Source: Puniceicoccales bacterium
Lineage (GTDB): Bacteria; Verrucomicrobiota; Verrucomicrobiia; Opitutales; UBA9783
DNA: 32,000 nt
Assembly (NCBI GenBank): GCA_031258545.1
Contig: JAIRMU010000010.1
Location: 1-32,000 of the forward strand
Direction: 5' to 3'
Shown here: in pieces, positions 111 to 14,832 of the stretch
How positions within the stretch are numbered: position 1 is the stretch's first letter
Layout: each line of letters begins with the position of its first letter
Program-made: the position numbers and the translations under genes
The notes under the pieces: generated by a model
Told to the model about the DNA's origin: nothing
The model's database searches: none
The model's input: the letters and a program-made list of their open reading frames with translations, nothing else

Positions 111-758
111 CACAGTTAAGTTATTATATCCTTCTCCACCTACCTTTGTCAAGGGTTTTTCAAGGTTTTTCGGAGGTGTTTGGAGAGAATTCGGCCCTTC
201 AATGCAAGGGCCCGAGGCATAAACAGACCTTGAAAAGTTCATTCGCCGTCAAATGCAATGCAGTAATTTGTTTTGTACAACATAATTCCCAAGGATTTTA
301 CAAGTACGTAACCGCACATACGGGGTTAATCTTTCATCGCGGTGTAGCAGGAAATATTGGGTGTTAAACCGAGAATCTGGATTTAGGTAAACGACCAACG
401 TATTCCTAAATTTCACCCTCATTTGGTCCCACAAATAACTTGCAAAAATAAAAACTTTAAACCGAAATAAAGCAATCATGCACAACGCTTTACCCAAAGT
501 ACTTTTATTTGGATGCACCAACGTTGGCAAAAGTACTTTGTTCAATCGTTTAAGTCAAAGTCGCATGGCGATTGTGCACGATCAACCCGGTGTAACGCGT
601 GATTTCTTGTCGGCAACCGTGGATGAAAAATTTCAACTTGTGGACAGTGGAGGCATAGGCAGTCCTAACGACTTATTTGCAAATTTGGTTGAAGACCGTG
701 TCAGAGGCATTTTGGAGAAAGCAGAGGTTGTCATTTGGGTTTTGGATGGAAAATGTGG
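111..758. repeat. Left arm of a large inverted duplication: pilin-module promoter, intergenic region, der promoter and der codons 1-93
   Basis: Its reverse complement matches 8594-9540. The der N-terminus is duplicated with 7 of 93 residues different, and the overlapping 98-aa shadow ORFs differ at 9 of 98 residues. Homology ends after AAATGTGG (751-758). Confidence 0.9.
123..152 (-). promoter_or_regulatory. Near-consensus sigma70 promoter firing leftward into the microsatellite (module copy 1)
   Basis: On the - strand: TTGACA (152..147), 18-nt spacer, TATAAT (128..123), then AACTTAACTGTGAAGACC. Preceded by an A-rich stretch (GAAAAACCC). The same module recurs at 9499-9540 and 10793-10840. 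Confidence 0.7.
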
Positions 759-1860
759 ATTGGCCGCCAGAGATTATGAAATTTCTCACACGTTGCGTAG
801 GCTAAATAAACCGATCATTTTGGCAGTTAACAAAATAGATAACGAACGAGATGAGTCCAGTTGGGTTGAATTTTACCATCTGGGTTGGGAAATTGTCATT
901 CCCATTGCCGCCGAGCATGCGATTAATATTACCATTTTAAAAGAAGCCATCATGCATGCGTTACCTTCGGCCAAAGCTCTTGAGAGTACCGTTGATTTTA
1001 GTGCAAAATTTGCCGTTATAGGTCGACCTAACGTGGGAAAGTCTTCCTTGGTTAACGCTTTGCTAAAAGAAGATCGCATGCTTGTGAGCGATGTTGCGGG
1101 AACAACGCGTGACGCGGTTGAATGCCCATTTTCATGGCAATTTCAAACGGGCCAGAAGGAGAATTTTGTTTTGGTGGATACGGCAGGCGTTCGAAAAAAG
1201 ATAATCGATCCCGTAGAGTATTACGCTTACGTAAGAACCGAGAAAGCATTGCAAACGGTGGACTTGTCTCTCATTTTATTAGATCTATTGGAAGGCCCCA
1301 CCGTTATTGATAAAGACCTGGTTCGCCACGTATACGCATTGGGAAAAGCGTGCATATGGGTGGTGAATAAATGGGATATCGCAAGGCAGCAATTGGACGC
1401 AAGTGGTGAAAATGTAGAAAAATTCCGAAATAAATTTTTACAGCAAATAAACAGTTTGTATCCATTTTTCAATACCCCTGTTGCATTCGTTTCAGCCAAA
1501 TCGGGAGAAGGCATAGACGCTTTACTGAGGCAAGTTGCCGCATTACACAAACGCCTTCACGCAACCGTTTCCACCGGTTTGCTGAACCGTTATTTGCAGA
1601 AAATTATCACCCAAACACCGCCTCCTTCATATAACGGAAAACATTTTAAAATTTATTATGCCGTTCAGATGAAATCGGCCCCCTTCACCCTGCGGGTGTT
1701 TTGCAATAAACTACGCTGGCTGCCCAATCATTACCAACGATTTTTAGAAAATTCCCTGCGGCGGCAATACGCATTGGATGGCTGTCCCATTGTGTGGCAA
1801 TGGGTTGAGAAGTCTCCTCATGCCCTGTTAAACGCATCACCATTGAAGCAAGTGGTTTAG
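478..1860 (+). CDS. der: Ribosome-associated GTPase Der/EngA
   Basis: 460 aa with two tandem GTPase domains (G1 GCTNVGKST and GRPNVGKSS; G3 DSGG and DTAG; G4 NKID and NKWD) plus a C-terminal KH-like region. Confidence 0.95.
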   Translation: MHNALPKVLLFGCTNVGKSTLFNRLSQSRMAIVHDQPGVTRDFLSATVDEKFQLVDSGGIGSPNDLFANLVEDRVRGILEKAEVVIWVLDGKCGLAARDYEISHTLRRLNKPIILAVNKIDNERDESSWVEFYHLGWEIVIPIAAEHAINITILKEAIMHALPSAKALESTVDFSAKFAVIGRPNVGKSSLVNALLKEDRMLVSDVAGTTRDAVECPFSWQFQTGQKENFVLVDTAGVRKKIIDPVEYYAYVRTEKALQTVDLSLILLDLLEGPTVIDKDLVRHVYALGKACIWVVNKWDIARQQLDASGENVEKFRNKFLQQINSLYPFFNTPVAFVSAKSGEGIDALLRQVAALHKRLHATVSTGLLNRYLQKIITQTPPPSYNGKHFKIYYAVQMKSAPFTLRVFCNKLRWLPNHYQRFLENSLRRQYALDGCPIVWQWVEKSPHALLNASPLKQVV

Positions 1861-2845: not shown

Positions 2846-4324
2846 TTGCGTGTAAGGATTTTGTACATTGGGAATGGCATACAAATCGTACTTCGGTTTT
2901 TTAGGTTGAAGTTTTCGGATCCACGCGTATATGCTTCACGTGTGAGAGAATTTCTGCAGCTTTTCCCAGAATTACGTACGTGGACGCAAACACTCGACCT
3001 AGAGCAGACGCGCAGATTGTGTCAGTCGTTTAGAAAGATTCCTTTTCGGGAATGGCGGGCATTAAAAACTGTGTCGCAAAAAGCTTTCAAAAAAAGGTCT
3101 TCATCCGTTAAACGGTGGACACAGCCCGCATGTTTTACGTTGGAAGACAGGCAAGTGCAATCGGCTTTGTGGCAGCAAGCTGAATCCAGAGGCATGCAGC
3201 ATTTACGTCAGGGGAAAGTGGCCGCCTTAACGGTTGCAGGAGGGTTGGGTACACGCTTAGATTTCCCAGGCCCCAAAGGTTTGGTTCCCGTAACACCTCT
3301 AAAACGTAAAACGTTATTTCAGGTGTTTGCCGAAAAATTAAAAGCCATTGAAAAGCTGCACGGCATACGTATGCACTGGTTTATCATGACAAGTGCAGAT
3401 ACGCACGAAGCAACGCAGGAAGCTTTTCAATCCAATCATTGGTATGATTCAAAATATGTTCATTTATTCCAACAGGGAGCATTACCTGCATTTACGATGG
3501 ACGGAACATGCTTACTGACCCATGAACCCAGCATCCATTATTATCCGGATGGCCATGGAGGTGTTTTTAAGGCTTTAGCATCGACCGGGTATCTGGATAA
3601 AATGTTGACATATGGCATAGAAACGCTGAGCTATTTTCAAGTGGACAATCCACTTGTTTGCATTGGGAATTGCAATTTCCTTGGATTGCATCTCAATGGC
3701 ATGTCCGATTTTTCCACAAAAGTTGTTGCCAAAACAAGTGCCGACGAAAAGGTGGGTGTTTTCGTCAACCAAGGTAATGTTTTACGATTGGTGGAATACA
3801 ATGAAATACCGGAGTATTTGTCGGTAAAAAAGACGAAAGAGGGTCAACTTTATTTTAAATGGGGTAATACGGCCATGCATCTCATTCAACGTAGTTTTTT
3901 AGAGGCAATGGCAAAGAAAAATCTGCCCATTCACGTAACGCATAAACCTATGCAACATTGGCATCCTTTACTGCAAAACAATTGTTCTGCCTCTTGTCAA
4001 AAATTAGAATATTTTATATTCGATGCGCTGCCTCTTGCAAAAAATCCACTCTTACTTGAAATAGATCGAAAAGAGGAATTTAGCCCTGTCAAAAACGCTC
4101 ATGGGCAAGATAGCTTGGACACTTGTATGAGGGATCAAATAAGTCGCTGGAATCGTTGGTTTTCAAATTGTGGATTAAACGTTGACCTTGGCAACAAAGC
4201 AAGCGATAATACCCATCGTCTCGAAATAAGTCCTTTGTTTGCGGATGATTACGTAAGCTTTAAAAATATGTGGCATGCATTGGTCATTAAACCTAATTAT
4301 TTTGAAAATCTTTATTTGGAGTAA
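2846..4324 (+). CDS. UDPGP-family (UAP1/USP-like) UTP:sugar-1-phosphate uridylyltransferase; true start uncertain
   Basis: Motifs GGLGTRLDFPGPKG and YFQVDNPLV are typical of the UDP-sugar / UDP-GlcNAc pyrophosphorylase family. The track start is a TTG and the first ~90 residues are not recognisable, so the real start may be further downstream. Confidence 0.75.
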   Translation: MRVRILYIGNGIQIVLRFFRLKFSDPRVYASRVREFLQLFPELRTWTQTLDLEQTRRLCQSFRKIPFREWRALKTVSQKAFKKRSSSVKRWTQPACFTLEDRQVQSALWQQAESRGMQHLRQGKVAALTVAGGLGTRLDFPGPKGLVPVTPLKRKTLFQVFAEKLKAIEKLHGIRMHWFIMTSADTHEATQEAFQSNHWYDSKYVHLFQQGALPAFTMDGTCLLTHEPSIHYYPDGHGGVFKALASTGYLDKMLTYGIETLSYFQVDNPLVCIGNCNFLGLHLNGMSDFSTKVVAKTSADEKVGVFVNQGNVLRLVEYNEIPEYLSVKKTKEGQLYFKWGNTAMHLIQRSFLEAMAKKNLPIHVTHKPMQHWHPLLQNNCSASCQKLEYFIFDALPLAKNPLLLEIDRKEEFSPVKNAHGQDSLDTCMRDQISRWNRWFSNCGLNVDLGNKASDNTHRLEISPLFADDYVSFKNMWHALVIKPNYFENLYLE

Positions 4325-4330
4325 GTTTAC

Positions 4331-6313
4331 ATGAATGCTATCTTTGATCAATTGCAGCAAGCGGTTCGAGCCGGGGAATTGCTCGAAAGTACATTGAATA
4401 ACATCGTTTATTACTTAAACGTGCAACAATTACCCGATTGGTTTACGTCAAGTCTTGAAGAATTGGTGGAACAAGGTCGGTGGGCTGAATTGAATGACCG
4501 ATTTTTTAAGTGCATAGAATTTGGTACCGCCGGCATGCGCGGACGTACCATAGGCAACCATGCAACGGCTGCTGAAAAAAAGGGGGATAATCATTACGTA
4601 CATGCCGCCATTGGAAGTAATTGCATGAACGATTTTAATGTTATTAAAGCAACCATAGGGCTTTTCAAATATTGCCGCATTTACCTTGAAGAAACTTTGG
4701 AATTCCCTCGTAGACCTAGCCTTGTGGTGGCTCACGACATGCGTTACTTTTCGCGACATTTTTGCGAATTGACGGCGTCCACGTGGAGTCGGTTGGGTGG
4801 AGACGTTTACGTATTTGATGGGCCTCGATCAACCCCGCAACTAAGTTTTTCAATTCGCTATTTAGGTGTTACGGCAGGCATTATGATCACGGCGAGCCAC
4901 AATCCTTTCTACGATAACGGTTATAAAGTTTATCTTCAGGATGGTGCTCAAGTTTGTGATGTGCATGCCAAAGGTATTACGCGCTGCATTGAGCAAGTAA
5001 GTTTACGGGACACTTTACCCTTTTTGATGAAGGACATAGAACCAGTCTTTTGCTTGTCTCCTTTAAGCGACGAAGCTTATCTGGAATGCGTCCAAGAGGT
5101 CCTGCTGGATGTGGATGTACTCAAAGTTTATAAACCCAAAGTTGTTTATACACCGCTGCACGGTACAGGTTCTGTCAGCATATTGCCGCTCCTGAAAAAC
5201 TTTGAATGGAATGTTCACTGTGTGGATGCACAATTGAAGATGGATCCAGCATTTCCCACCATTCGGTTTCCCAATCCCGAGCACAAAGAAGCTTTAAAAA
5301 TGGCCTTAGACTTAGCGCAGGAAGTGGACGCGGATGCAGTCATTGCGACAGATCCCGATGGCGACCGCATGGGTGTTGCTTTAAAAAATGACCAAAAAGA
5401 ATGGTGTGTTTTAAGCGGCAATACTTTGGCTGTTTTATTGGTCGAGTATCGAATATTTAAAATGATTGGTTTAGGGATCCTCCCCCGTAAGCAGGAAAAA
5501 CGTCGGAATGGGGCCCTCATTAAGTCGTTTGTAACCACACCAATGCTAAAGGCGATAGGCGATTATCACGGCCTCAAAACGGTTGAAACGCTAACCGGAT
5601 TTAAGTGGATCGGTGCGAAGTTAAACGATTACGAGATAGCATTGAAGCAGCGTGTTCGAAAGATGCAAGGACTGGGGATAGACTACGATAAAACATCTTT
5701 TAAAAAACGTAAGGATCTGCTGTTACAACATTCTACGTTTTATATCTTTGGAGGCGAAGAAAGTTACGGCTATTTGGCCAATGATCGCGTTAGAGATAAG
5801 GATGCCAATGCCGCCGCTTTGATGTTTTGCGAATTTTTAGCTTACCTAAAATCTAAGGAAATGAACTTTTCGGATTATTTGGACGAAATGTATTGCAAAT
5901 ATGGGTATTTCCAAGAAGATTTGCTGAGCTTTTCATTTGAAGGTGCTGCCGGATTTTCCACCATGCAAAAGTTATTAACGTCTTACCGACAGGATGTTCC
6001 AAAAAAAATAAATAATGTTCGTGTTTTGAGCATAGCTGATTTTTCTCGCGAAGGACACCATAAAGATTGCGAAGGTAAGGTAATTGCCGTTGCCAATTTT
6101 TTGATCATTAAACTTATCGATGGCTTTAGTGTGGCCATTCGCGGCAGTGGAACAGAACCCAAGGTAAAGATATATTTGCTGGGGCAATCGGAAGTTGAAC
6201 ATGAAGATTTACTGCCTCATATTAAGCAGGATGTTGCGCAACGTTTAGGACAATTGAAAGAATTTTTACGTGAAGATGTGGCTAAGCGTATTCAGGCAAA
6301 GCAAAACGCGTAG
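4331..6313 (+). CDS. Alpha-D-phosphohexomutase (phosphoglucomutase/phosphomannomutase, PGM2/PgcA-like long form)
   Basis: Active-site serine loop TASHNP, Mg-binding DPDGDR, sugar-binding GGEESYG. 660 aa. Starts 6 nt after the preceding gene. Confidence 0.88.
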   Translation: MNAIFDQLQQAVRAGELLESTLNNIVYYLNVQQLPDWFTSSLEELVEQGRWAELNDRFFKCIEFGTAGMRGRTIGNHATAAEKKGDNHYVHAAIGSNCMNDFNVIKATIGLFKYCRIYLEETLEFPRRPSLVVAHDMRYFSRHFCELTASTWSRLGGDVYVFDGPRSTPQLSFSIRYLGVTAGIMITASHNPFYDNGYKVYLQDGAQVCDVHAKGITRCIEQVSLRDTLPFLMKDIEPVFCLSPLSDEAYLECVQEVLLDVDVLKVYKPKVVYTPLHGTGSVSILPLLKNFEWNVHCVDAQLKMDPAFPTIRFPNPEHKEALKMALDLAQEVDADAVIATDPDGDRMGVALKNDQKEWCVLSGNTLAVLLVEYRIFKMIGLGILPRKQEKRRNGALIKSFVTTPMLKAIGDYHGLKTVETLTGFKWIGAKLNDYEIALKQRVRKMQGLGIDYDKTSFKKRKDLLLQHSTFYIFGGEESYGYLANDRVRDKDANAAALMFCEFLAYLKSKEMNFSDYLDEMYCKYGYFQEDLLSFSFEGAAGFSTMQKLLTSYRQDVPKKINNVRVLSIADFSREGHHKDCEGKVIAVANFLIIKLIDGFSVAIRGSGTEPKVKIYLLGQSEVEHEDLLPHIKQDVAQRLGQLKEFLREDVAKRIQAKQNA

Positions 6314-8547: not shown

Positions 8548-8874
8548 CTAGAAGATTGAGACATACGAATGTAAGCTAAATGTGGCTGTCGGGCCACATT
8601 TTCCATCCAAAACCCAAACGACAACCTCTGCTTTCTCCAAAATGCCTCTGATACGGTCTTCAACCAAATTTGCAAATAAGTTGTCGGGACTGCCTATGCC
8701 GCCACTGTCCACAAGTTGAAATTTTTTATCCACAGTCATCGACAAGAAATCACGCGTTACACCGGGTTGATCGTGCACAATCGCCATGCGACTTTGACTT
8801 AAACGATTGAACAAAGTACTTTTGCCAACGTTGGCGCATCCAAATAAAAGTACTTTGGGTAAAGCGTTGTGCAT
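8548..8874 (-). pseudogene. Truncated duplicate of the der 5' end (codons 1-93 plus 15 unrelated codons)
   Basis: MHNALPKVLLFGC(A/T)NVGKST...VLDGKCG matches der with 7 of 93 differences, then diverges and stops. It lacks G4, the second GTPase domain and the KH domain. It lies in the right arm of the inverted duplication. Confidence 0.88.
8578..8601. other. Perfect 9-bp stem, 6-nt loop palindrome at the inner breakpoint of the duplication
   Basis: AAATGTGGC tgtcgg GCCACATTT. The right half is the last 9 nt of the duplicated der sequence; the left half is its inverted copy. There is no T-run on either strand, so it is not called a terminator. Confidence 0.8.
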
Positions 8875-9540
8875 AATTGCTTTATTTCTGTTTAAAGTTT
8901 GTATTTTTGCAAGTTATTTGTGGGACCAAATGAGGGTGAAACTTGGGAACACGTTGGTCGTTTACCTAAATCCAGATTCTCGGTTTAACACCCAATATTT
9001 CCTGCTACACCGTGATAAAAGATTAACCCCGTATGTGCGGTTACGTACTTGTAAAATCCTTGGGAATTATGTTGTACAAAACAAATTACTGAATTACATT
9101 TGATGGCGAATGAACTTTTCAAAATCTGTGAGTATAACATTTCATGGATGATGATAGACTTATAATACCATAAGCCGGCAATGTGTCATAAAGTTCAACC
9201 TTCAACATGAGTCAGTCTACAATCTATAAGTTTTGAAAATCCTCCGAGAAATTATGTATGTACGCGTATATTCAAGAGGACTGCATCCGTTTTACTACCA
9301 CCGACTGGAGTTGATAAAACTGTTTTGAATATCTCTGGGAATGATGCAATACGACGAAAAACGAAATCACATCCGTCTTACCGCATATCAATCTTAACCC
9401 ATAAACCCAGTTTTACCGTAAGACAAACATCCCCTTGGCCATTGCATCGGATAATTGAATTTTCCTTCAAAACCCTCCGCAAATACCATGAAAAACCCTT
9501 GACAGAGGTAGGTAGGGAAGGATAGAATAATTTAACTGTG
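8594..9540. repeat. Right arm of the inverted duplication; carries roughly 300 bp extra relative to the left arm
   Basis: Reverse-complement match to 111-758. The distance from the der ATG to the module -35 box is 624 nt here and 325 nt on the left. The extra DNA lies roughly at 9128-9420. Confidence 0.88.
9499..9528 (+). promoter_or_regulatory. Sigma70-type promoter of pilin-like gene A (module copy 2)
   Basis: TTGACA (9499-9504), 18-nt spacer, TAGAAT (9523-9528), then AATTTAACTGTGAAGACCTCAA. Nearly identical to copy 1. Confidence 0.65.
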
Positions 9541-9614
9541 AAGACCTCAAAGCGTCTGAGCGCTTAGTTGCCAACCTCATTCCGGAGGTCGAAGACCTCG
9601 GTCAACGGTTGGGA
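9538..9614 (+). promoter_or_regulatory. Conserved 5' leader, copy 2: 9-codon GTG mini-ORF, 20-nt invariant box, and a segment complementary to the box that contains the TTG start
   Basis: GTG 9538 to TAG 9567 encodes MKTSKRLSA. The box TTGCCAACCTCATTCCGGAG (9568-9587) is identical in copy 3. CAACGGTTGGGA (9603-9614) contains GGTTGG, complementary to CCAACC in the box, and the TTG start at 9609. An inner hairpin GAGGTC-gaa-GACCTC sits at 9585-9599. Confidence 0.4.
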
Positions 9615-10457
9615 GCCGATCGAGAATCGGAACTAAGTCGAGAGTGGGAAGCCGTCTGTAAATTAAGACTAAGCCAGAAATCGAGACCGATCCAGAGATT
9701 GGCCCTAAATCAACTGTCTGGATCAAGTCGAGACCTGGAGCCAAAACAAAAGTTAAAGTCGGTTCGAGGGCCAGAGCTAAGCCAGGGATTAGGATCGGTC
9801 CGGAGATTTGACCCCAATCGAAGATCCGATCGAGGATTACCTCGAAAATTGGAAGCGAGTCGGGACCTATGGTCGGTTTATGAATCAGAGTCTCCATCCC
9901 CATCCGTAACCCGAAAAGGTTTTACGCTCATCGAAATCGTTGTCACCCTGTGCATCGTGGCCATCCTGACCGCCATTGCCATTCCTGGCTTTAGGAAAGC
10001 CACGGAAGATTTTCGATTGAATTCCACACTCGAAGACACGGTGGACATACTCAAAGCCTGCCGCAATTACTATCTCATCTTTAATGAGTTCCCTCTGGAT
10101 TCATGCGATAGTGTCATACCGAATCGCCTGAGGCTATTTGTACCCCATCGTCTTATTAACACCGCAACGGGCAAATGGAATGCCCTTCCACTAGGCAATA
10201 AAGCCTACAGTTATGACATCGACAATTGGATGGGTAATACCTCCAACAAACAACACAGTATAGGTATATCACTGTGCGGCATCAGACAAAATACTGCCGA
10301 TTGGAATAAGTGTTATAATAAGTTTAAGTCGCGTATAGGAGAGAGGTATATTACACCCTGGTCGGTTAGTTCTTATTACATGATATGCCTTTTACCCGAA
10401 TGTCCTGGATCGACGGATCATAATAGAAATACGACGTGGGAAAATCGATACTATTAG
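9609..10457 (+). CDS. Type IV pilin / pseudopilin-like protein A with a long N-terminal extension; start codon unresolved
   Basis: Prepilin motif RKG|FTLIEIVVTLCIVAILTAIAIPGF (G at 9918-9920, E at +5) followed by a ~178-aa Cys-containing domain ending PECPGST...WENRYY. The frame is open from 9531. The first canonical start is TTG 9609, giving a 104-codon leader. There is no in-frame ATG before the motif. Confidence 0.8.
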   Translation: MGADRESELSREWEAVCKLRLSQKSRPIQRLALNQLSGSSRDLEPKQKLKSVRGPELSQGLGSVRRFDPNRRSDRGLPRKLEASRDLWSVYESESPSPSVTRKGFTLIEIVVTLCIVAILTAIAIPGFRKATEDFRLNSTLEDTVDILKACRNYYLIFNEFPLDSCDSVIPNRLRLFVPHRLINTATGKWNALPLGNKAYSYDIDNWMGNTSNKQHSIGISLCGIRQNTADWNKCYNKFKSRIGERYITPWSVSSYYMICLLPECPGSTDHNRNTTWENRYY

Positions 10458-10792
10458 ACGAATTCCTTATTTATTTGGATTCAATACTTGGAGTTATGTG
10501 TGGGTAAAAGGTAAAACCATGACATCCTTTTAATTTGAGTAAACAATCGATGAATCCGCGTTAAAAAAACGAAGGCATCCATTATTTACAAGTCCAGCCC
10601 TTCAGGAAGTTAGTGGAACGCATCTGTTCTGACGACAATTGCGATGTAAAAACCATGACGCCATTAGACTAACCATTTTCCCCAAAAACAATCTTGTGAA
10701 CCAAAGCAATAGGTGATTTAGGAGAAATTTGCCATATGGCGTCTTGGGGAGTTAATCCCGGCAATGAATTCTAGAAAAAAGATCCAATCTCC

Positions 10793-10820
10793 TTGACAAA
10801 GAACAAAAAACGACTATAAT
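10793..10820 (+). promoter_or_regulatory. Sigma70-type promoter of pilin-like gene B (module copy 3)
   Basis: TTGACA (10793-10798), 16-nt spacer, TATAAT (10815-10820), then AACTTAATTGTGAAGAC. Confidence 0.65.
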
Positions 10821-10829
10821 AACTTAATT

Positions 10830-10906
10830 GTGAAGACACCGAGATCTCTGACCGTTTAATTGCCAACCTCATTCCGGAGCTAAAGGACCCCAGGCAACGG
10901 TTGGGA
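10830..10906 (+). promoter_or_regulatory. Conserved 5' leader, copy 3: same architecture and spacing as 9538-9614
   Basis: GTG 10830 to TAA 10859 encodes MKTPRSLTV. The box TTGCCAACCTCATTCCGGAG is at 10860-10879 and CAACGGTTGGGA at 10895-10906, with the TTG start at 10901. Box-to-TTG distance is 41 nt in both copies. Confidence 0.4.
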
Positions 10907-11692
10907 TCAGGTCAAAGGGTAAGATCAGATCGAGGATTGGAGTTAGGTCGAGATCTGAAACCGATCCAAAGGTCGGAACCCAGCCAAAGATCTGATCAAA
11001 GATTACCTCAAAGATTTTGGCAAAACCGGAAGTTGAGACCAACCTGGGGATTGGGATGGTTGAAGTTCTTCGGAGGTTCGGGATTATTTCACGGGGTCGC
11101 CTACACCCTACCGTTTTCGAGTAAATACCTAGAAAGGCAATCTAAGCATCCATCCGCAAGCCGTAACGGATTTACGCTCATCGAAGTTGTTGTCACGCTG
11201 TGCATCGTGGCCATCCTTACCGCCATCGCCATTCCGGGGTTTAAAAAGGCGACCGAAGATTTTCGGCTTAATGCAACGCTAGAAGATACTGTGGATATTA
11301 TGAAGGCTTGCCGCGCTTACTACCTCATCTTTAATGAATGGCCTGCTGACGCAGGTGATAATATAGAAACCAAATTGTGCCCTTTTGTACCTAATCGTTT
11401 GATGAATCCCAGCAAGCGGTGGAATCGTAGGCCATTGAATAGTACAGCCTACAACTATGATTGGGAAAATTTTGTAAGCTATGCAAACACGTTACCTCAT
11501 AGTGTTGGGATATCTCTCATAGGTATTAAATTTGGTACTGCTGTTTGGGATAAATGTTACCTTAAGTTCCAACCTGTGATTGGAGGCAAATACATTATGA
11601 GTCGTAATGATCGCATGTGTTGCCTTATGCCCGAATGCCCTGGTTCGACAAATCCTAACAGTAACACGCTTTGGGAGAATCGATACTATTAA
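10901..11692 (+). CDS. Type IV pilin / pseudopilin-like protein B, paralog of A; start codon unresolved
   Basis: RNG|FTLIEVVVTLCIVAILTAIAIPGF (G at 11168-11170). The first ~55 mature residues are nearly identical to A, the middle is diverged, and the tail PECPGST...WENRYY is shared. The frame is open from 10823. TTG 10901 gives a 90-codon leader with no in-frame ATG. Confidence 0.8.
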   Translation: MGSGQRVRSDRGLELGRDLKPIQRSEPSQRSDQRLPQRFWQNRKLRPTWGLGWLKFFGGSGLFHGVAYTLPFSSKYLERQSKHPSASRNGFTLIEVVVTLCIVAILTAIAIPGFKKATEDFRLNATLEDTVDIMKACRAYYLIFNEWPADAGDNIETKLCPFVPNRLMNPSKRWNRRPLNSTAYNYDWENFVSYANTLPHSVGISLIGIKFGTAVWDKCYLKFQPVIGGKYIMSRNDRMCCLMPECPGSTNPNSNTLWENRYY

Positions 11693-11720
11693 AAAACCGA
11701 TTTCTCGTTTGAATGGGGTT

Positions 11721-11798
11721 AACTGGACTCCTGGTATGGCAAAACTCTTTTGCGTACTTTCCAAATGTCCGGGGAAAGTTGAAAATAAATACTATTAA
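11721..11798 (+). pseudogene. Orphan 3'-terminal fragment of a further pilin-like paralog
   Basis: Translates to NWTPGMAKLFCVLSKCPGKVENKYY*. This parallels ITPW...MICLLPECPGST...WENRYY* and ...MCCLMPECPGST...WENRYY*. DNA tail GAAAATAAATACTATTAA versus GAGAATCGATACTATTAA. It begins 29 nt after the gene B stop. Confidence 0.45.
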
Positions 11799-12144
11799 GA
11801 ACTTCTCCTAATAACCGTTAAAAGTTGGCCGGAATTTTAATAATCCGAAAAACATCACCCCAATAAACATCAAATAAGTACACTCATTATTTAAAATATT
11901 TTGAGGATATTACGATGGTTCATTCTCTCATTTTAGTAAGACATGGCAGTACCCTATAAAGATTAGTGACCGTAATTGAGTTTAAAAAATACGGCCAAAT
12001 TTTACAATTTGCAGAGTTCATTGCAAGCGGCTACGGGTAAGCTTGTAGAGTCCTGGGACAGGCCAATGCAAAAAGTGGCTTGAGGCCTGACCACTTATAT
12101 GTCTAAAAAAGTTGCCACCTTAAATTTAGAAGTATAAATGTAAG

Positions 12145-14832
12145 ATGCATATGAAGTCCAGTGAAATTAGGCAAAGTTTTCTCAATTTTTTTGAAAATAA
12201 GGGACACCGCATTGTCGATTCAAGTTCCTTGCTGCCGGAAACACCTAATTTATTATTTACCAACGCCGGAATGAATCCATTGGTTCCTTATTTTTTAGGT
12301 GAGCGATGTCCGCAATACAAGCGCGTTGCCGATACACAAAAATGCATTCGAGCGGGTGGCAAGCATAATGATTTGGAGGAAGTTGGATTTGATACTTACC
12401 ATCACACGTTTTTTGAAATGCTCGGCAATTGGTCTTTGGGAGACTATTTTAAAGAAGAGGCCATTTTATGGGCCTGGGAGCTTTTGACCCAAGTTTGGCA
12501 TTTCCCCAAAGAACGTCTATACGCAACCGTTTATCGACCTGCAGTGGGCGAACCCGCAAGTTTTGATGAAGAAGCCTACGTGTTGTGGGAAAAGATTTTT
12601 TTAGCGGAAGGTATGGACCCTGGTGTCCACATCTTAACGGGTAGCAAAAAAGATAATTTTTGGATGATGGGTGATACGGGACCGTGCGGTCCGTGTTCGG
12701 AAATTCATATGGATCTTACACCCCAAGGGGATACGCAAGGTCGTTGGGTCAATCAAGGAGATGCACGCTGCATGGAGATCTGGAATCTTGTTTTTATGCA
12801 GTACAATGCGCTGCCCAACGGTACATTCGAGTTGCTCAAAAGTAGGTTTGTGGATACCGGCATGGGATTTGAGCGCGTCGCCGGAATTTTTTCAAGCACG
12901 CAAAATTTAAAAAACTTTTCCCAAACACCCTCCAATTACAACAGCGATCTGTTTACTCCCCTACTGCGTCAATTGGAACAATGGTCCGGGTACAAATACG
13001 GTGGCCGCATTGCCGCAAATTCTCAAACCATTGTCGATGCGGATACCTTAAGAGATTGTTCCTTTCGTATTATTGCCGATCACGTCAGAACGTTGACGTT
13101 TGCGATTGCGGATGGCATTTTACCAGGGAATGAAGGACGTCACTACGTTTTAAGACGTATCATTCGAAGGGCTATCCTTTTTGGACAAAAATTAAATTTG
13201 CCCAATGGATTTCTTGCAGATCTTTCCCGCATCGTCGTGCAACACATGCATACCTTTTTTAGAGAACTCATGCAACAGTCGGAGATCGTTAAAACCGTTC
13301 TTAATAATGAAGAGCAGTCGTTTAAAGTAACGCTGCAAAAGGGCCTTAATCTGTTTGAAAAGTGGTCTTCCGATAACGCATACCTAAGTGGGGACCAGGC
13401 ATTTCTGCTCTACGACACCTACGGATTTCCGCTCGATCTAACGCAATTAATGGCCAGAGAGAAAGGAATCACCGTAGACACAGCGCAATTTAACGTACGC
13501 ATGCAGGAACAAAAAGGACGTTCCAAAGCGGCGCTTAGGAAAACAACGATTGCCCTGCAGGAAAACGATTCACCTAAAACGCATTTCGTCGGATACGACA
13601 TAAGCAATTGCACCGCATACGAAAGCGTGGTCAACGATTGCGTACCAGAAGATGCAAACGTAAGTTATGTCATTACGGCATCCACCCCTTTTTACGCCGA
13701 AAAAGGAGGGCAAGTGGGCGATGGTGGCCAAATTATCTTCCAGGATGGCACCGTAGGTGAAGTTGTGAACACACGTTATCAAAATCAAATCATTTTACAC
13801 CAAGTCCTCTTACCCCATTCGACGATCATTAAATACAAACATACACCCGTTACTTTATCCGTCGACGTCGAACGACGTAAACACATCTCCCATCATCATA
13901 CGGCAACCCACATACTGCATTGGGCATTGCGAAAAATATTGGGGGAACACGTTAAACAAGCCGGATCTTGGGTGCAGGCAGATCAACTTAGATTTGACTT
14001 TTCTCACTTTGAAAAGCTCAGCGAAACAACGATTGCCGATGTGGAAAGACTCTGTTGCGAAAAAATCTTGGAAAATCTTCCCATCAGCACCCTGGAAGTT
14101 CCATTTGATCAAAAACCTAAGGACTGTTTGGCATTTTTTGGCGACAAATATGGAGATACGGTACGCGTTGTTCAAATCTTAAACTGTTCCAAAGAACTAT
14201 GCGGAGGGACCCATGCAACGCGTACAGGCGATTTAGGTTTGTTGAAAATTAAACAAGAAAGCGCTGTAGCAGCGGGCGTTCGACGGATCGAAGCCACCGT
14301 GGGTGTACATGCAATCCAGTACATCAATACCTATATTACCTGCGTGCAACAATTGGAAAAAATGATGGATTGCCCATTGCAGAAGCTCCAAGAACGATTT
14401 CAGTTACTGCAACAACAAAAAGCCGAAGTAGAAAAGCGGTATCAGCAAGCATTACAAAAGACTTCCAGTCAACTTGTTGCCGAAACAGTCACCCACAATA
14501 CGCTCTGCTGCGTTCGACTCGCACTGCAGTCCGTAGACACGCATACGCTCAAAAATCTCAGCAAACAGTACTTTAACGAACAAAAACCGGACATCTTATG
14601 CTCATTTGGAGAGCAAACGCAAAAAGGATTTGTATTTGTTTTTTGTTCAGAAAAAGCTATTCAAAAAGGATTTACGGCGTCAACACTGATTCAACGGCTG
14701 TTGCAACCCCTAGGTGCCAATGGTGGCGGTAAAGCTGATTTTGCAAGTGGTGGCGTGAAACGCAGCATCGACTTGGAACGGTACTTACAAATTTTCTCGC
14801 TGGAAAAATTTTTCAACGGGAGTAAAATTTAG
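12145..14832 (+). CDS. alaS: Alanine--tRNA ligase
   Basis: 895 aa. N-terminus (MH)MKSSEIRQSFLNFFENKGH, class II core HHTFFEMLGNWS, editing-domain metal ligands HHHTATH and CGGTH, C-terminal DHHA1-like region. The start is probably the ATG at 12151. Confidence 0.97.
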   Translation: MHMKSSEIRQSFLNFFENKGHRIVDSSSLLPETPNLLFTNAGMNPLVPYFLGERCPQYKRVADTQKCIRAGGKHNDLEEVGFDTYHHTFFEMLGNWSLGDYFKEEAILWAWELLTQVWHFPKERLYATVYRPAVGEPASFDEEAYVLWEKIFLAEGMDPGVHILTGSKKDNFWMMGDTGPCGPCSEIHMDLTPQGDTQGRWVNQGDARCMEIWNLVFMQYNALPNGTFELLKSRFVDTGMGFERVAGIFSSTQNLKNFSQTPSNYNSDLFTPLLRQLEQWSGYKYGGRIAANSQTIVDADTLRDCSFRIIADHVRTLTFAIADGILPGNEGRHYVLRRIIRRAILFGQKLNLPNGFLADLSRIVVQHMHTFFRELMQQSEIVKTVLNNEEQSFKVTLQKGLNLFEKWSSDNAYLSGDQAFLLYDTYGFPLDLTQLMAREKGITVDTAQFNVRMQEQKGRSKAALRKTTIALQENDSPKTHFVGYDISNCTAYESVVNDCVPEDANVSYVITASTPFYAEKGGQVGDGGQIIFQDGTVGEVVNTRYQNQIILHQVLLPHSTIIKYKHTPVTLSVDVERRKHISHHHTATHILHWALRKILGEHVKQAGSWVQADQLRFDFSHFEKLSETTIADVERLCCEKILENLPISTLEVPFDQKPKDCLAFFGDKYGDTVRVVQILNCSKELCGGTHATRTGDLGLLKIKQESAVAAGVRRIEATVGVHAIQYINTYITCVQQLEKMMDCPLQKLQERFQLLQQQKAEVEKRYQQALQKTSSQLVAETVTHNTLCCVRLALQSVDTHTLKNLSKQYFNEQKPDILCSFGEQTQKGFVFVFCSEKAIQKGFTASTLIQRLLQPLGANGGGKADFASGGVKRSIDLERYLQIFSLEKFFNGSKI

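Follow-up and report, generated by a model that had tools for sequence, protein, structure and literature searches.

A candidate phase-variable type IV pilin family with exceptionally long open leaders in uncultured Puniceicoccales

Introduction

How is a type IV pilin translated when its reading frame runs open for more than a hundred codons ahead of the prepilin cleavage site and holds neither an ATG nor a GTG in all that length? The question is raised by two paralogous genes, here called gene A and gene B, in a 32,000-nt stretch of DNA from an uncultured Puniceicoccales bacterium of the Verrucomicrobiota (contig JAIRMU010000010.1 of assembly GCA_031258545.1, positions 1 to 32,000 of the forward strand; hereafter the window). 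Long-leader type IVb and Flp prepilins carry leaders of 15–30 residues. Described prepilin leaders span 6–26 residues (PMC4471445), and neither gene A nor gene B has a leader of that kind, 6–26 or up to about 30 residues long from an initiator methionine. An earlier note on this DNA had read the two genes as having repeat-derived leaders of roughly 100 residues, kept open by selection, begun at a TTG codon and serving as a pro-region or a cytoplasmic domain. Our analysis of the two genes and their relatives leads to an answer that we hold to be probable: genes A and B would belong to a pilin family whose phase varies by slipped-strand mispairing, much as in the opa genes of Neisseria, and the long leader would be a translated spacer free of constraint on its sequence.

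Results

Two intact pilin genes behind long open frames

Genes A and B comprise the following parts, all on the forward strand.

9499–9528 (+), gene A promoter: TTGACA at 9499–9504, an 18-nt spacer and the −10 box TAGAAT at 9523–9528, matching the sigma-70 consensus at 11 of 12 positions
9531–9917 (+), gene A open leader frame: 129 codons, with no stop and no ATG or GTG
9538–9567 (+), gene A GTG and short upstream open reading frame (uORF): GTG at 9538–9540, one AAGACCTC unit at 9541–9548, nine-codon frame VKTSKRLSA*
9918–10457 (+), gene A mature pilin and stop codon: G|FTLIE... to ...WENRYY, 179 codons without stop or frameshift
10793–10820 (+), gene B promoter: TTGACA, a 16-nt spacer and the −10 box TATAAT at 10815–10820, matching the sigma-70 consensus at 12 of 12 positions
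10823–11167 (+), gene B open leader frame: 115 codons, with no stop and no ATG or GTG
10830–10859 (+), gene B GTG and uORF: GTG at 10830–10832, the degenerate units AAGACACC GAGATCTC, nine-codon frame VKTPRSLTV*
11168–11692 (+), gene B mature pilin and stop codon: 174 codons without stop or frameshift

Both products score above the cut-off of the Pfam family N_methyl (PF07963) and reach 27–28 bits with TIGR02532 (cut-off 16.3), and both have the marks of a class III signal, namely glycine at −1, phenylalanine at +1, glutamate at +5 and about 20 hydrophobic residues. Across 41 sequences, positions G1, F2, T3, L4 and E6 are invariant. AlphaFold2 models the mature gene A product, with a predicted local distance score (pLDDT) of 88.5 and a predicted template-modelling score (pTM) of 0.80, as a 52-residue helix (residues 4–55) followed by four strands in a small beta sheet. 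The top Foldseek matches of this model are type IV pilins (9iuf_A, 6t8s, 5vxx and 3sok, with E-values of 3e-3 and weaker), and the best matches in the Protein Data Bank (PDB) include the type IVb pilin of enterotoxigenic Escherichia coli (ETEC; 9iuf), C. difficile PilA1 (6t8s), the gonococcal pilin and FimA. We are confident, from the model, that the mature domain adopts a pilin fold. A protein of a Puniceicoccales (Verrucomicrobiota) metagenome-assembled genome (MAG) matches the gene A product at 100% identity, and the 63 homologs are without exception from Puniceicoccales MAGs or from Joint Genome Institute (JGI) metagenomes.

In both genes the pilin frame is open from a TAA that overlaps the −10 box (9528–9530 in A, 10820–10822 in B) to the cleavage-site glycine (GGT at 9918–9920, GGA at 11168–11170), exactly as the earlier note had placed it. 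Its counts of stop triplets between the first TTG and the glycine also hold (8 + 3 = 11 in A and 6 + 4 = 10 in B, none in the pilin frame), as does its statement that neither leader contains an in-frame ATG or GTG. The TTG codons that it named are present, but its list omitted one in gene A (9699) and two in gene B (10937 and 11033); the full sets are 9609, 9699 and 9849 in A and 10901, 10937, 11033, 11051 and 11060 in B, and the canonical start closest to the glycine is a TTG 23 codons upstream in A and 36 in B. When each leader was subjected to 5,000 dinucleotide-preserving shuffles and the given frame was scored, that frame came out open in 0.34% (A) and 0.68% (B) of them, free of ATG and GTG in 4.5% and 7.5%, and both at once in at most 0.02%.

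Gene callers treat these genes inconsistently. Among the homologs the N-terminus is set at a TTG 12 codons before the glycine, at a far-upstream TTG or GTG, or at a GTG within the transmembrane helix, and three pipelines give three starts for gene B (TTG 10901, 11033 and 11051, one each). The earlier note had also pointed to the missing Shine–Dalgarno sequence at the leader TTGs. This argument carries little weight, since an upstream GGAG, GAGG or AGGA motif precedes only 8 of the 24 likely genes in the window; because such motifs are rare in the genome, their lack at the leader TTGs is not decisive. Several genes of the window have a −10-like TATAAA or TATAAT a few nucleotides before the ATG, as alaS does at 12145. 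Our survey of the window suggests that leaderless or Shine–Dalgarno-less initiation is common in the source genome.

Frame selection across the family

Related Puniceicoccales MAGs provided a set of 12 leaders (1,494 codons), from which a subset of 10 leaders (1,422 codons) was also analysed. The pilin frame of the 12 leaders contains no stop, whereas the other two contain 45 and 113, and it is the frame with the most one-step paths to a stop (796 versus 562 and 530). In the 10-leader subset, the pilin frame should hold about 88 stops by the composition of the codon positions and holds none; for the other frames the expectation is 48 and 79, and the observed 43 and 108 come close to it. Strong start codons are depleted in the same frame: the subset has no in-frame ATG against 22.5 expected, all of its 25 ATGs lying in the other two frames, and GTG accounts for 3 of the 73 valine codons in the leaders, as opposed to 26% in the genes of the window (binomial p = 6e-7). 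The three in-frame GTG exceptions all occur in a subgroup with a conserved TTG 12 codons before the glycine. Together with the shuffles, these statistics on related leaders bear out the selection for an open frame that the earlier note had suspected. Leaders of the family measure anything from 35 to over 400 codons; among the longest are those of loci L007 (399 codons) and L006 (293 codons).

A probable GTG start and a tandem repeat at the missed 5′ end

The clue to where translation begins lies upstream of the leader TTGs. An identical layout, in which the promoter with its −10 box is followed after 9 nt by a GTG and then by AAGAC..., is invariant in seven loci, that is, in genes A and B, in a third copy in the window and in L161, L165, L004 and L168; in L005, AACTGTG and the repeat stand right at the contig start, with the promoter beyond the contig. 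A distant paralog, L166, has an ordinary 9-residue leader (MHLENKQSCG|FTLVE) beginning at an ATG 8 nt past the −10 box. Because this ATG occupies the matching place, the mRNAs of the family appear to be leaderless or almost so, and the GTG appears to stand where translation started ancestrally. A start at one of the leader TTGs, as the earlier note had proposed, thereby gives way to a likelier candidate, the invariant GTG that lies 9 nt past the −10 box and, in the paralogs, ahead of a repeat with 7- or 8-nt units.

The third copy in the window, and the duplication that relates it to gene A, comprise the following features.

1–110 (−), simple sequence repeat: 13.75 units of AAGACCTC, extending past the start of the window
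111–152 (−), third pilin-type promoter and start: TTGACA at 152–147, TATAAT at 128–123, 9-nt spacer AACTTAACT, GTG at 113–111
9462–9550 and 101–189, small arms of an inverted duplication: 89 nt, 83% complementary, spanning promoter, GTG and first repeat unit

Its promoter is nearly identical to that of gene A, and its pilin gene lies beyond the window. Perfect tracts of 7- or 8-nt units, situated after a GTG or at contig ends, are also present in L001, L005, L006, L162, L164, L167 and L168; unit numbers run from 11 to at least 17, and a single tract is complete, the others being truncated where the contig ends. The family uses four variants of the unit (AAGACCC, AAGACTC, AAGACCTC and AAGATACC), the tracts of the individual loci being (AAGACCC)n in L001, L005, L006 and L168, (AAGACTC)n in L167, (AAGACCTC)n in L162 and (ACCAAGAT)n in L164. 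All four units are free of stops and start codons in every frame, and they encode hydrophilic peptides (KTQDPRP, KTSRPQDL and KTQDSRL). The family thus has the arrangement that defines opa-type genes, a perfect repeat at the 5′ end of the open reading frame with a unit whose length is not a multiple of three, and genes A and B themselves lack it. A genome scan found that every Puniceicoccales homolog abuts a contig end on its 5′ side; contigs appear to break at the tracts because the tracts exceed the k-mer of the assembler, as inferred from contig names containing k119.

Unrelated proteins of other organisms (P0075, P0077, P0082 and P0084, among them HisH, DUF899 and TruB proteins) likewise contain peptide repeats of the KTQDPRP or RPQDLKTS type, and AAGACCC-like tracts therefore extend beyond the pilin family; many of the proteins matched in the search with the repeat peptides were unrelated low-complexity proteins. 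A G-quadruplex role for the repeat was considered and rejected, as runs of three G are present on the complement of the AAGACCC variant only and are not conserved across the units.

In-frame and out-of-frame loci

At 7 of 10 loci both wrong frames are stopped 8–29 nt past the repeat, by stops that lie 8 nt apart, whereas in L004b they close at 24 and 43 nt. Early termination at out-of-frame tract lengths, a second feature of opa-type genes, is accordingly found here. In L001 and L162 there is no in-frame ATG, GTG or TTG from the repeat to the glycine codon, and any canonical start must therefore lie upstream of the repeat. An in-frame example is P0057/P0143, known here from its protein sequence, which JGI and NCBI both annotate from the GTG: M/V-KTSRPQDL repeated 4.75 times is followed by ASKRLIITGRLKTPVPGRASKSPSIPRNG|FTLIE, so that 14 units are in frame with the cleavage site and the leader measures 67 residues. 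P0143 (MDR0647087) is probably from the same MAG as gene B (MDR0647174), judging by their nearby NCBI accessions. The opposite state is found in L168, which another MAG contains as an internal locus assembled in full, with promoter, GTG at 4244, 11 units, double stop and glycine codon at 4539: the distance from GTG to glycine is 295 nt (remainder 1 on division by three), which puts the GTG out of frame by one unit, and its frame ends at a TAA right after the 11 units. The architecture, the frame statistics and these two loci, one in frame and one out of frame, are features of the sequences as they stand. Because P0143 is annotated from the GTG, because 290 to 400 codons are open elsewhere and because of the frame statistics, leaders far beyond the described 6–26 residues are very probably translated in the family.

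In genes A and B the GTG codons are out of the pilin frame, with 380 nt to the glycine in A and 338 nt in B (remainder 2 in both), and each uORF ends at a double stop, which in gene A (TGA 9557–9559 and TAG 9565–9567; module TCTGAGCGCTTAG) closes both non-pilin frames and in gene B consists of TGA 10849–10851 and TAA 10857–10859. L004b has the same 5′ layout and no in-frame ATG, GTG or TTG whatsoever. Because the repeat is down to one unit in A and to two degenerate ones in B, with the GTG out of frame, we predict that the two genes as assembled are unable to switch and are OFF, with at most weak expression initiated at a TTG. As they stand, A and B are more likely OFF than making the leader of about 100 residues that the earlier note envisaged. 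A programmed frameshift, from ATG 9871 or within the uORF, was also considered and rejected: gene B has no such ATG, and the two genes share no slippery motif.

A leader without amino-acid constraint

Mismatches between leaders are spread evenly over codon positions 1, 2 and 3 (78/73/76; p = 0.92), whereas those of the mature domains are strongly biased towards the third position (892/525/2544), which indicates purifying selection on the pilin. With substitutions so distributed and a length that varies more than tenfold, a conserved pro-domain or cytoplasmic domain, the function that the earlier note had foreseen, does not fit; the leader is selected for readability and for lack of a strong start, and for nothing else.

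'Repeat-derived', the earlier note's term for the leaders, is correct, but the repeat is a degenerate one with a period of 18 nt (6 codons), roughly (Q/R)(R/G)L(E/K/G)(S/P)x with a conserved TTGGAA core, and in gene A it occupies approximately 9600–9880. It is too degenerate for Tandem Repeats Finder, which did not detect it on 9000–12200. Descent of the leader from decayed 8-nt units was rejected, since autocorrelation peaks fall at 18, 36 and 54 nt, not at 8 or 24. All 30 BLAST matches between leaders are in the same phase. At L004 1–538 and L007 1–1198 and in proteins P0013 and P0051, the leader-end motif (...SVSRNGF) also turns up inside the leader, every time with a promoter-less copy of the 5′ element (HRDTKTSDRLIA...) behind it. 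Such mosaic leaders give the impression that tandem genes were joined when the first pilin body and the second promoter were deleted.

Discussion

A proposed frame switch at the head of a pilin gene

We propose that transcription from the consensus sigma-70 promoter would yield a leaderless or near-leaderless mRNA on which the invariant GTG, 9 nt further on, is the probable start codon. The perfect tandem repeat directly behind it would gain or lose units by slippage and so shift the frame. Two of the three phases would terminate at once at the double stop just past the repeat, and the third would read through the spacer of degenerate 18-nt repeats into G|FTLIE, while the purge of ATG and GTG would prevent initiation independent of the repeat. 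The hydrophilic leader would remain on the cytoplasmic side and be removed by the prepilin peptidase, in keeping with the leader topology described for prepilins (PMC4471445). Genes A and B would stay OFF until recombination with a repeat-bearing paralog restored switching, one candidate partner being the inverted duplicate of the gene A promoter at the start of the window. We infer, then, that the GTG is the start codon, that repeat length varies within populations and that the leader is cleaved.

Several observations weigh against this proposal. In all five loci with one to three units (A, B, L004b, L161 and L165) the GTG is out of frame, and in all five the leader and the mature domain are intact despite this. 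Recent origin or exchange with repeat-bearing paralogs may be the reason why A and B are intact, and this is the weakest part of our account. The ON-like state (P0143) and the OFF-like state (L168) are found at different loci, and length differences are seen between loci and as broken contigs, not within one population. A GTG at position 10 after the −10 box sits at the far edge of usual start-site selection, and to our knowledge GUG-initiated leaderless translation has not been demonstrated in the phylum Verrucomicrobiota. In-frame TTG is enriched in the leaders (74 observed versus 22 expected), and the TTG conserved 12 codons before the glycine in one subgroup could serve as a start independent of the repeat. 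Past the double stop, some 80 nt (9549–9625 in A, 10841–10917 in B) are unusually conserved between the two genes, with identical runs of 20 and 12 nt, and recur in paralogs apparently from the same genome, a conservation for which our proposal does not account. Finally, in L163 5526–6260, the syntenic ortholog upstream of alaS, GTTAGACCTCAAGAC follows the promoter directly, and both GTG and repeat are missing; a 1-nt frameshift beside a GGGG run splits the leader, and a TGA overlaps an in-frame ATG (GTGTGATG) at 6001, 85 codons before the glycine, which would give an 85-residue leader. Because both halves of that leader are still open in their own frames, the evidence suggests that the change in L163 is recent.

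Other explanations

The rival that survives best is constitutive translation of A and B from an in-frame TTG (9609, 10901 or a proximal one), producing a pro-region of about 25–100 residues that is either cleaved or kept as a cytoplasmic tail. TTG 9609 and TTG 10901 do fall within the 12-nt block identical between the two genes, and NCBI annotates gene A and two apparently same-genome paralogs from the equivalent codon (MGADRE..., MGAGRG... and MGADRG...); the codon at the position equivalent to 9609 is, however, not conserved in L006, the three pipelines disagree on gene B, and L004b, with the same 5′ layout, offers no canonical in-frame start. The rarity of Shine–Dalgarno motifs in the genome makes their lack here non-decisive, and TTG initiation would account for promoters and intact frames being kept although the GTG is out of frame. 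It would leave the repeats, the double-stop module and the purge of ATG and GTG unexplained, and the leader lacks constraint at the amino-acid level. We consider constitutive TTG initiation unlikely.

Alternatively, A and B might be silent or decaying copies without repeat or start, either donors for repeat-bearing expression loci, in the manner of pilS, or pseudogenes in the making. Such a role would suit an out-of-frame GTG followed by one repeat unit, the long repeat tract borne by the inverted duplicate of the gene A promoter region, the mosaics of fused modules among the leaders elsewhere and the shared phase of all 30 leader-to-leader matches. Against it, promoters matching 11 of 12 and 12 of 12 consensus positions have been kept, needless for silent cassettes; no stop or frameshift interrupts 129 + 179 codons in A or 115 + 174 in B; and the third-position bias of the mature domains reflects purifying selection. 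That A and B are silent copies therefore seems to us quite improbable.

Very little probability attaches to the leader being an untranslated regulatory 5′ UTR (untranslated region), whether a CsrB-like GGA array or a structured RNA, with a non-canonical start near the cleavage site. Such an RNA could not explain why stops (0 versus 88 expected), ATG and GTG are missing from one frame in particular, and no start codon is conserved beside the cleavage site. The 18-nt periodicity with its TTGGAA core would be in keeping with an array, and GGA is enriched in L006 (42 observed versus 22 ± 3.7) and more weakly elsewhere; this enrichment is modest, and the leaders do not qualify as GGA-repeat RNAs of the CsrB/RsmZ type. 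Folding is somewhat better than in shuffles for the gene A leader (z = −2.5) and equal to them for that of gene B (z = 0.0). Rfam returned nothing at the gathering threshold and no match on 9480–11250 even at E ≤ 5. A strong conserved RNA structure in the leader was rejected on the gene B value and on the weakness of the RNAalifold hairpin between 9571–9576 and 9607–9612, whose 3′ arm lies over TTG 9609 (covariation term +0.96, several broken pairs).

Least probable of all is an attenuation-like switch of the Streptococcus gallolyticus pil1 kind (PMC3894217), in which the GTG opens a separate short frame whose repeat-set length controls transcription or unmasks a start (ribosomes ending at the double stop could, for instance, melt that hairpin and free TTG 9609): the nine-codon length of the uORF is conserved in A, B and L004b, the hairpin is placed as required and the precedent exists, but the plus strand of 9000–12200 has no terminator-like site between promoter and pilin, the covariation is weak, and a separate frame would not need a leader fused in frame to the pilin and open for hundreds of codons.

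Genomic surroundings

Beyond the pilin genes, four further features of the window are relevant.

223–769 and 8583–9129, large arms of the inverted duplication: 547 nt, 95% complementary
478–1860 (+), der, full gene
8548–8874 (−), der, truncated copy of 108 codons
19990–31434 (−), 8 kb downstream, cluster resembling a type II secretion system (T2SS) or type IV filament: T2SSF/GspF, T2SSE/GspE, secretin (GspD), a PilN-like protein and at least three pseudopilins

The inverted duplication contains the 5′ part of der, the intergenic region and the pilin promoter, and recombination between its arms would invert about 8 kb. The pseudopilins of the downstream cluster have ordinary ATG starts and leaders of 8–24 residues. 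No prepilin peptidase gene was identified among the open reading frames of the window that were scanned. In other contigs, the loci L166 168–626 and L167 2536–3238 lie near genes of the type III secretion chaperone or gatekeeper type (CesT; SycN and TyeA), and these neighbours hint at a host-associated lifestyle.

Relation to known systems and significance

The closest parallel is provided by the opa genes of Neisseria, in which a CTCTT coding repeat lies in the signal-peptide region of about 11 independently switching paralogs. In both families a repeat whose unit is not a multiple of three, located in a removable N-terminal signal, sets the frame of a mature surface protein, and each copy of a multigene family has its own promoter. 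Unlike opa, of which 11 phase-variable genes are mentioned (PMC11868660), the pilin family has a 7- or 8-nt unit in four variants, a class III (prepilin) instead of a class I signal, a GTG about 10 nt past the −10 box with no 5′ UTR, and a sequence-free spacer of 35 to more than 400 codons between repeat and cleavage site; its host is an uncultured member of the Verrucomicrobiota, and switching is here a prediction from sequence.

Other systems share single elements with it. In S. gallolyticus pil1, GCAGA repeats in a leader peptide act together with transcription attenuation (PMC3894217); there, as is proposed for the pilin family, the frame of a translated leader ahead of the pilus genes depends on a repeat, and expression with it, but the pil1 leader is a separate open reading frame acting on a terminator, whereas the pilin leader is fused in frame and no terminator was found. 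The Haemophilus influenzae adhesin genes hmw1A and hmw2A have an upstream phase-variation device of 13–24 (ATCTTTC) units (PMC8262952), comparable to our tracts in being long and heptanucleotide; the hmw repeats, placed between two promoters, tune transcription by degrees, whereas the pilin tract lies downstream of its promoter, inside an open frame and with frame-specific stops beside it. As in Neisseria pilE/pilS, there are many pilin paralogs with signs of recombination (mosaic leaders and duplicated promoter modules). The pilS copies are devoid of a promoter and of the 5′ coding part. Unlike them, each copy here has a consensus promoter and a complete N-terminus, and recombination is read from sequence comparison.

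The proteins agree with type IV prepilins in Gly −1, Phe +1, Glu +5, the hydrophobic helix and the hydrophilic leader, and the structures nearest to their predicted fold are those of the ETEC type IVb pilin 9iuf and C. difficile PilA1. Unlike known prepilins, they have predicted leaders of 67 to more than 400 residues that are repetitive, without conserved sequence and purged of methionine codons. Our literature searches found no description of a repeat-switched long-leader pilin system. Most known cases of phase variation through coding repeats concern pathogens with small genomes and units of 1–5 nt. Tentatively, we suggest that these are by far the longest prepilin leaders known, combining a leaderless GTG, a contingency repeat and a frame-sensing spacer that is cut by the prepilin peptidase, in many paralogs switched independently within a non-pathogenic lineage.

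If this is true, uncultured Verrucomicrobiota would possess a family of contingency genes with 7- and 8-nt units, acting on type IV pilins through a removable leader, and the accepted length of class III signal peptides would be extended more than tenfold. The leaders would be a rare clean case of a coding region selected for its frame alone, with stops and strong starts purged. Both the inconsistent starts assigned by gene callers and the breaks of MAG contigs at these genes would be explained, and repeat counts in sequencing reads would offer a direct handle on surface variation in the community.

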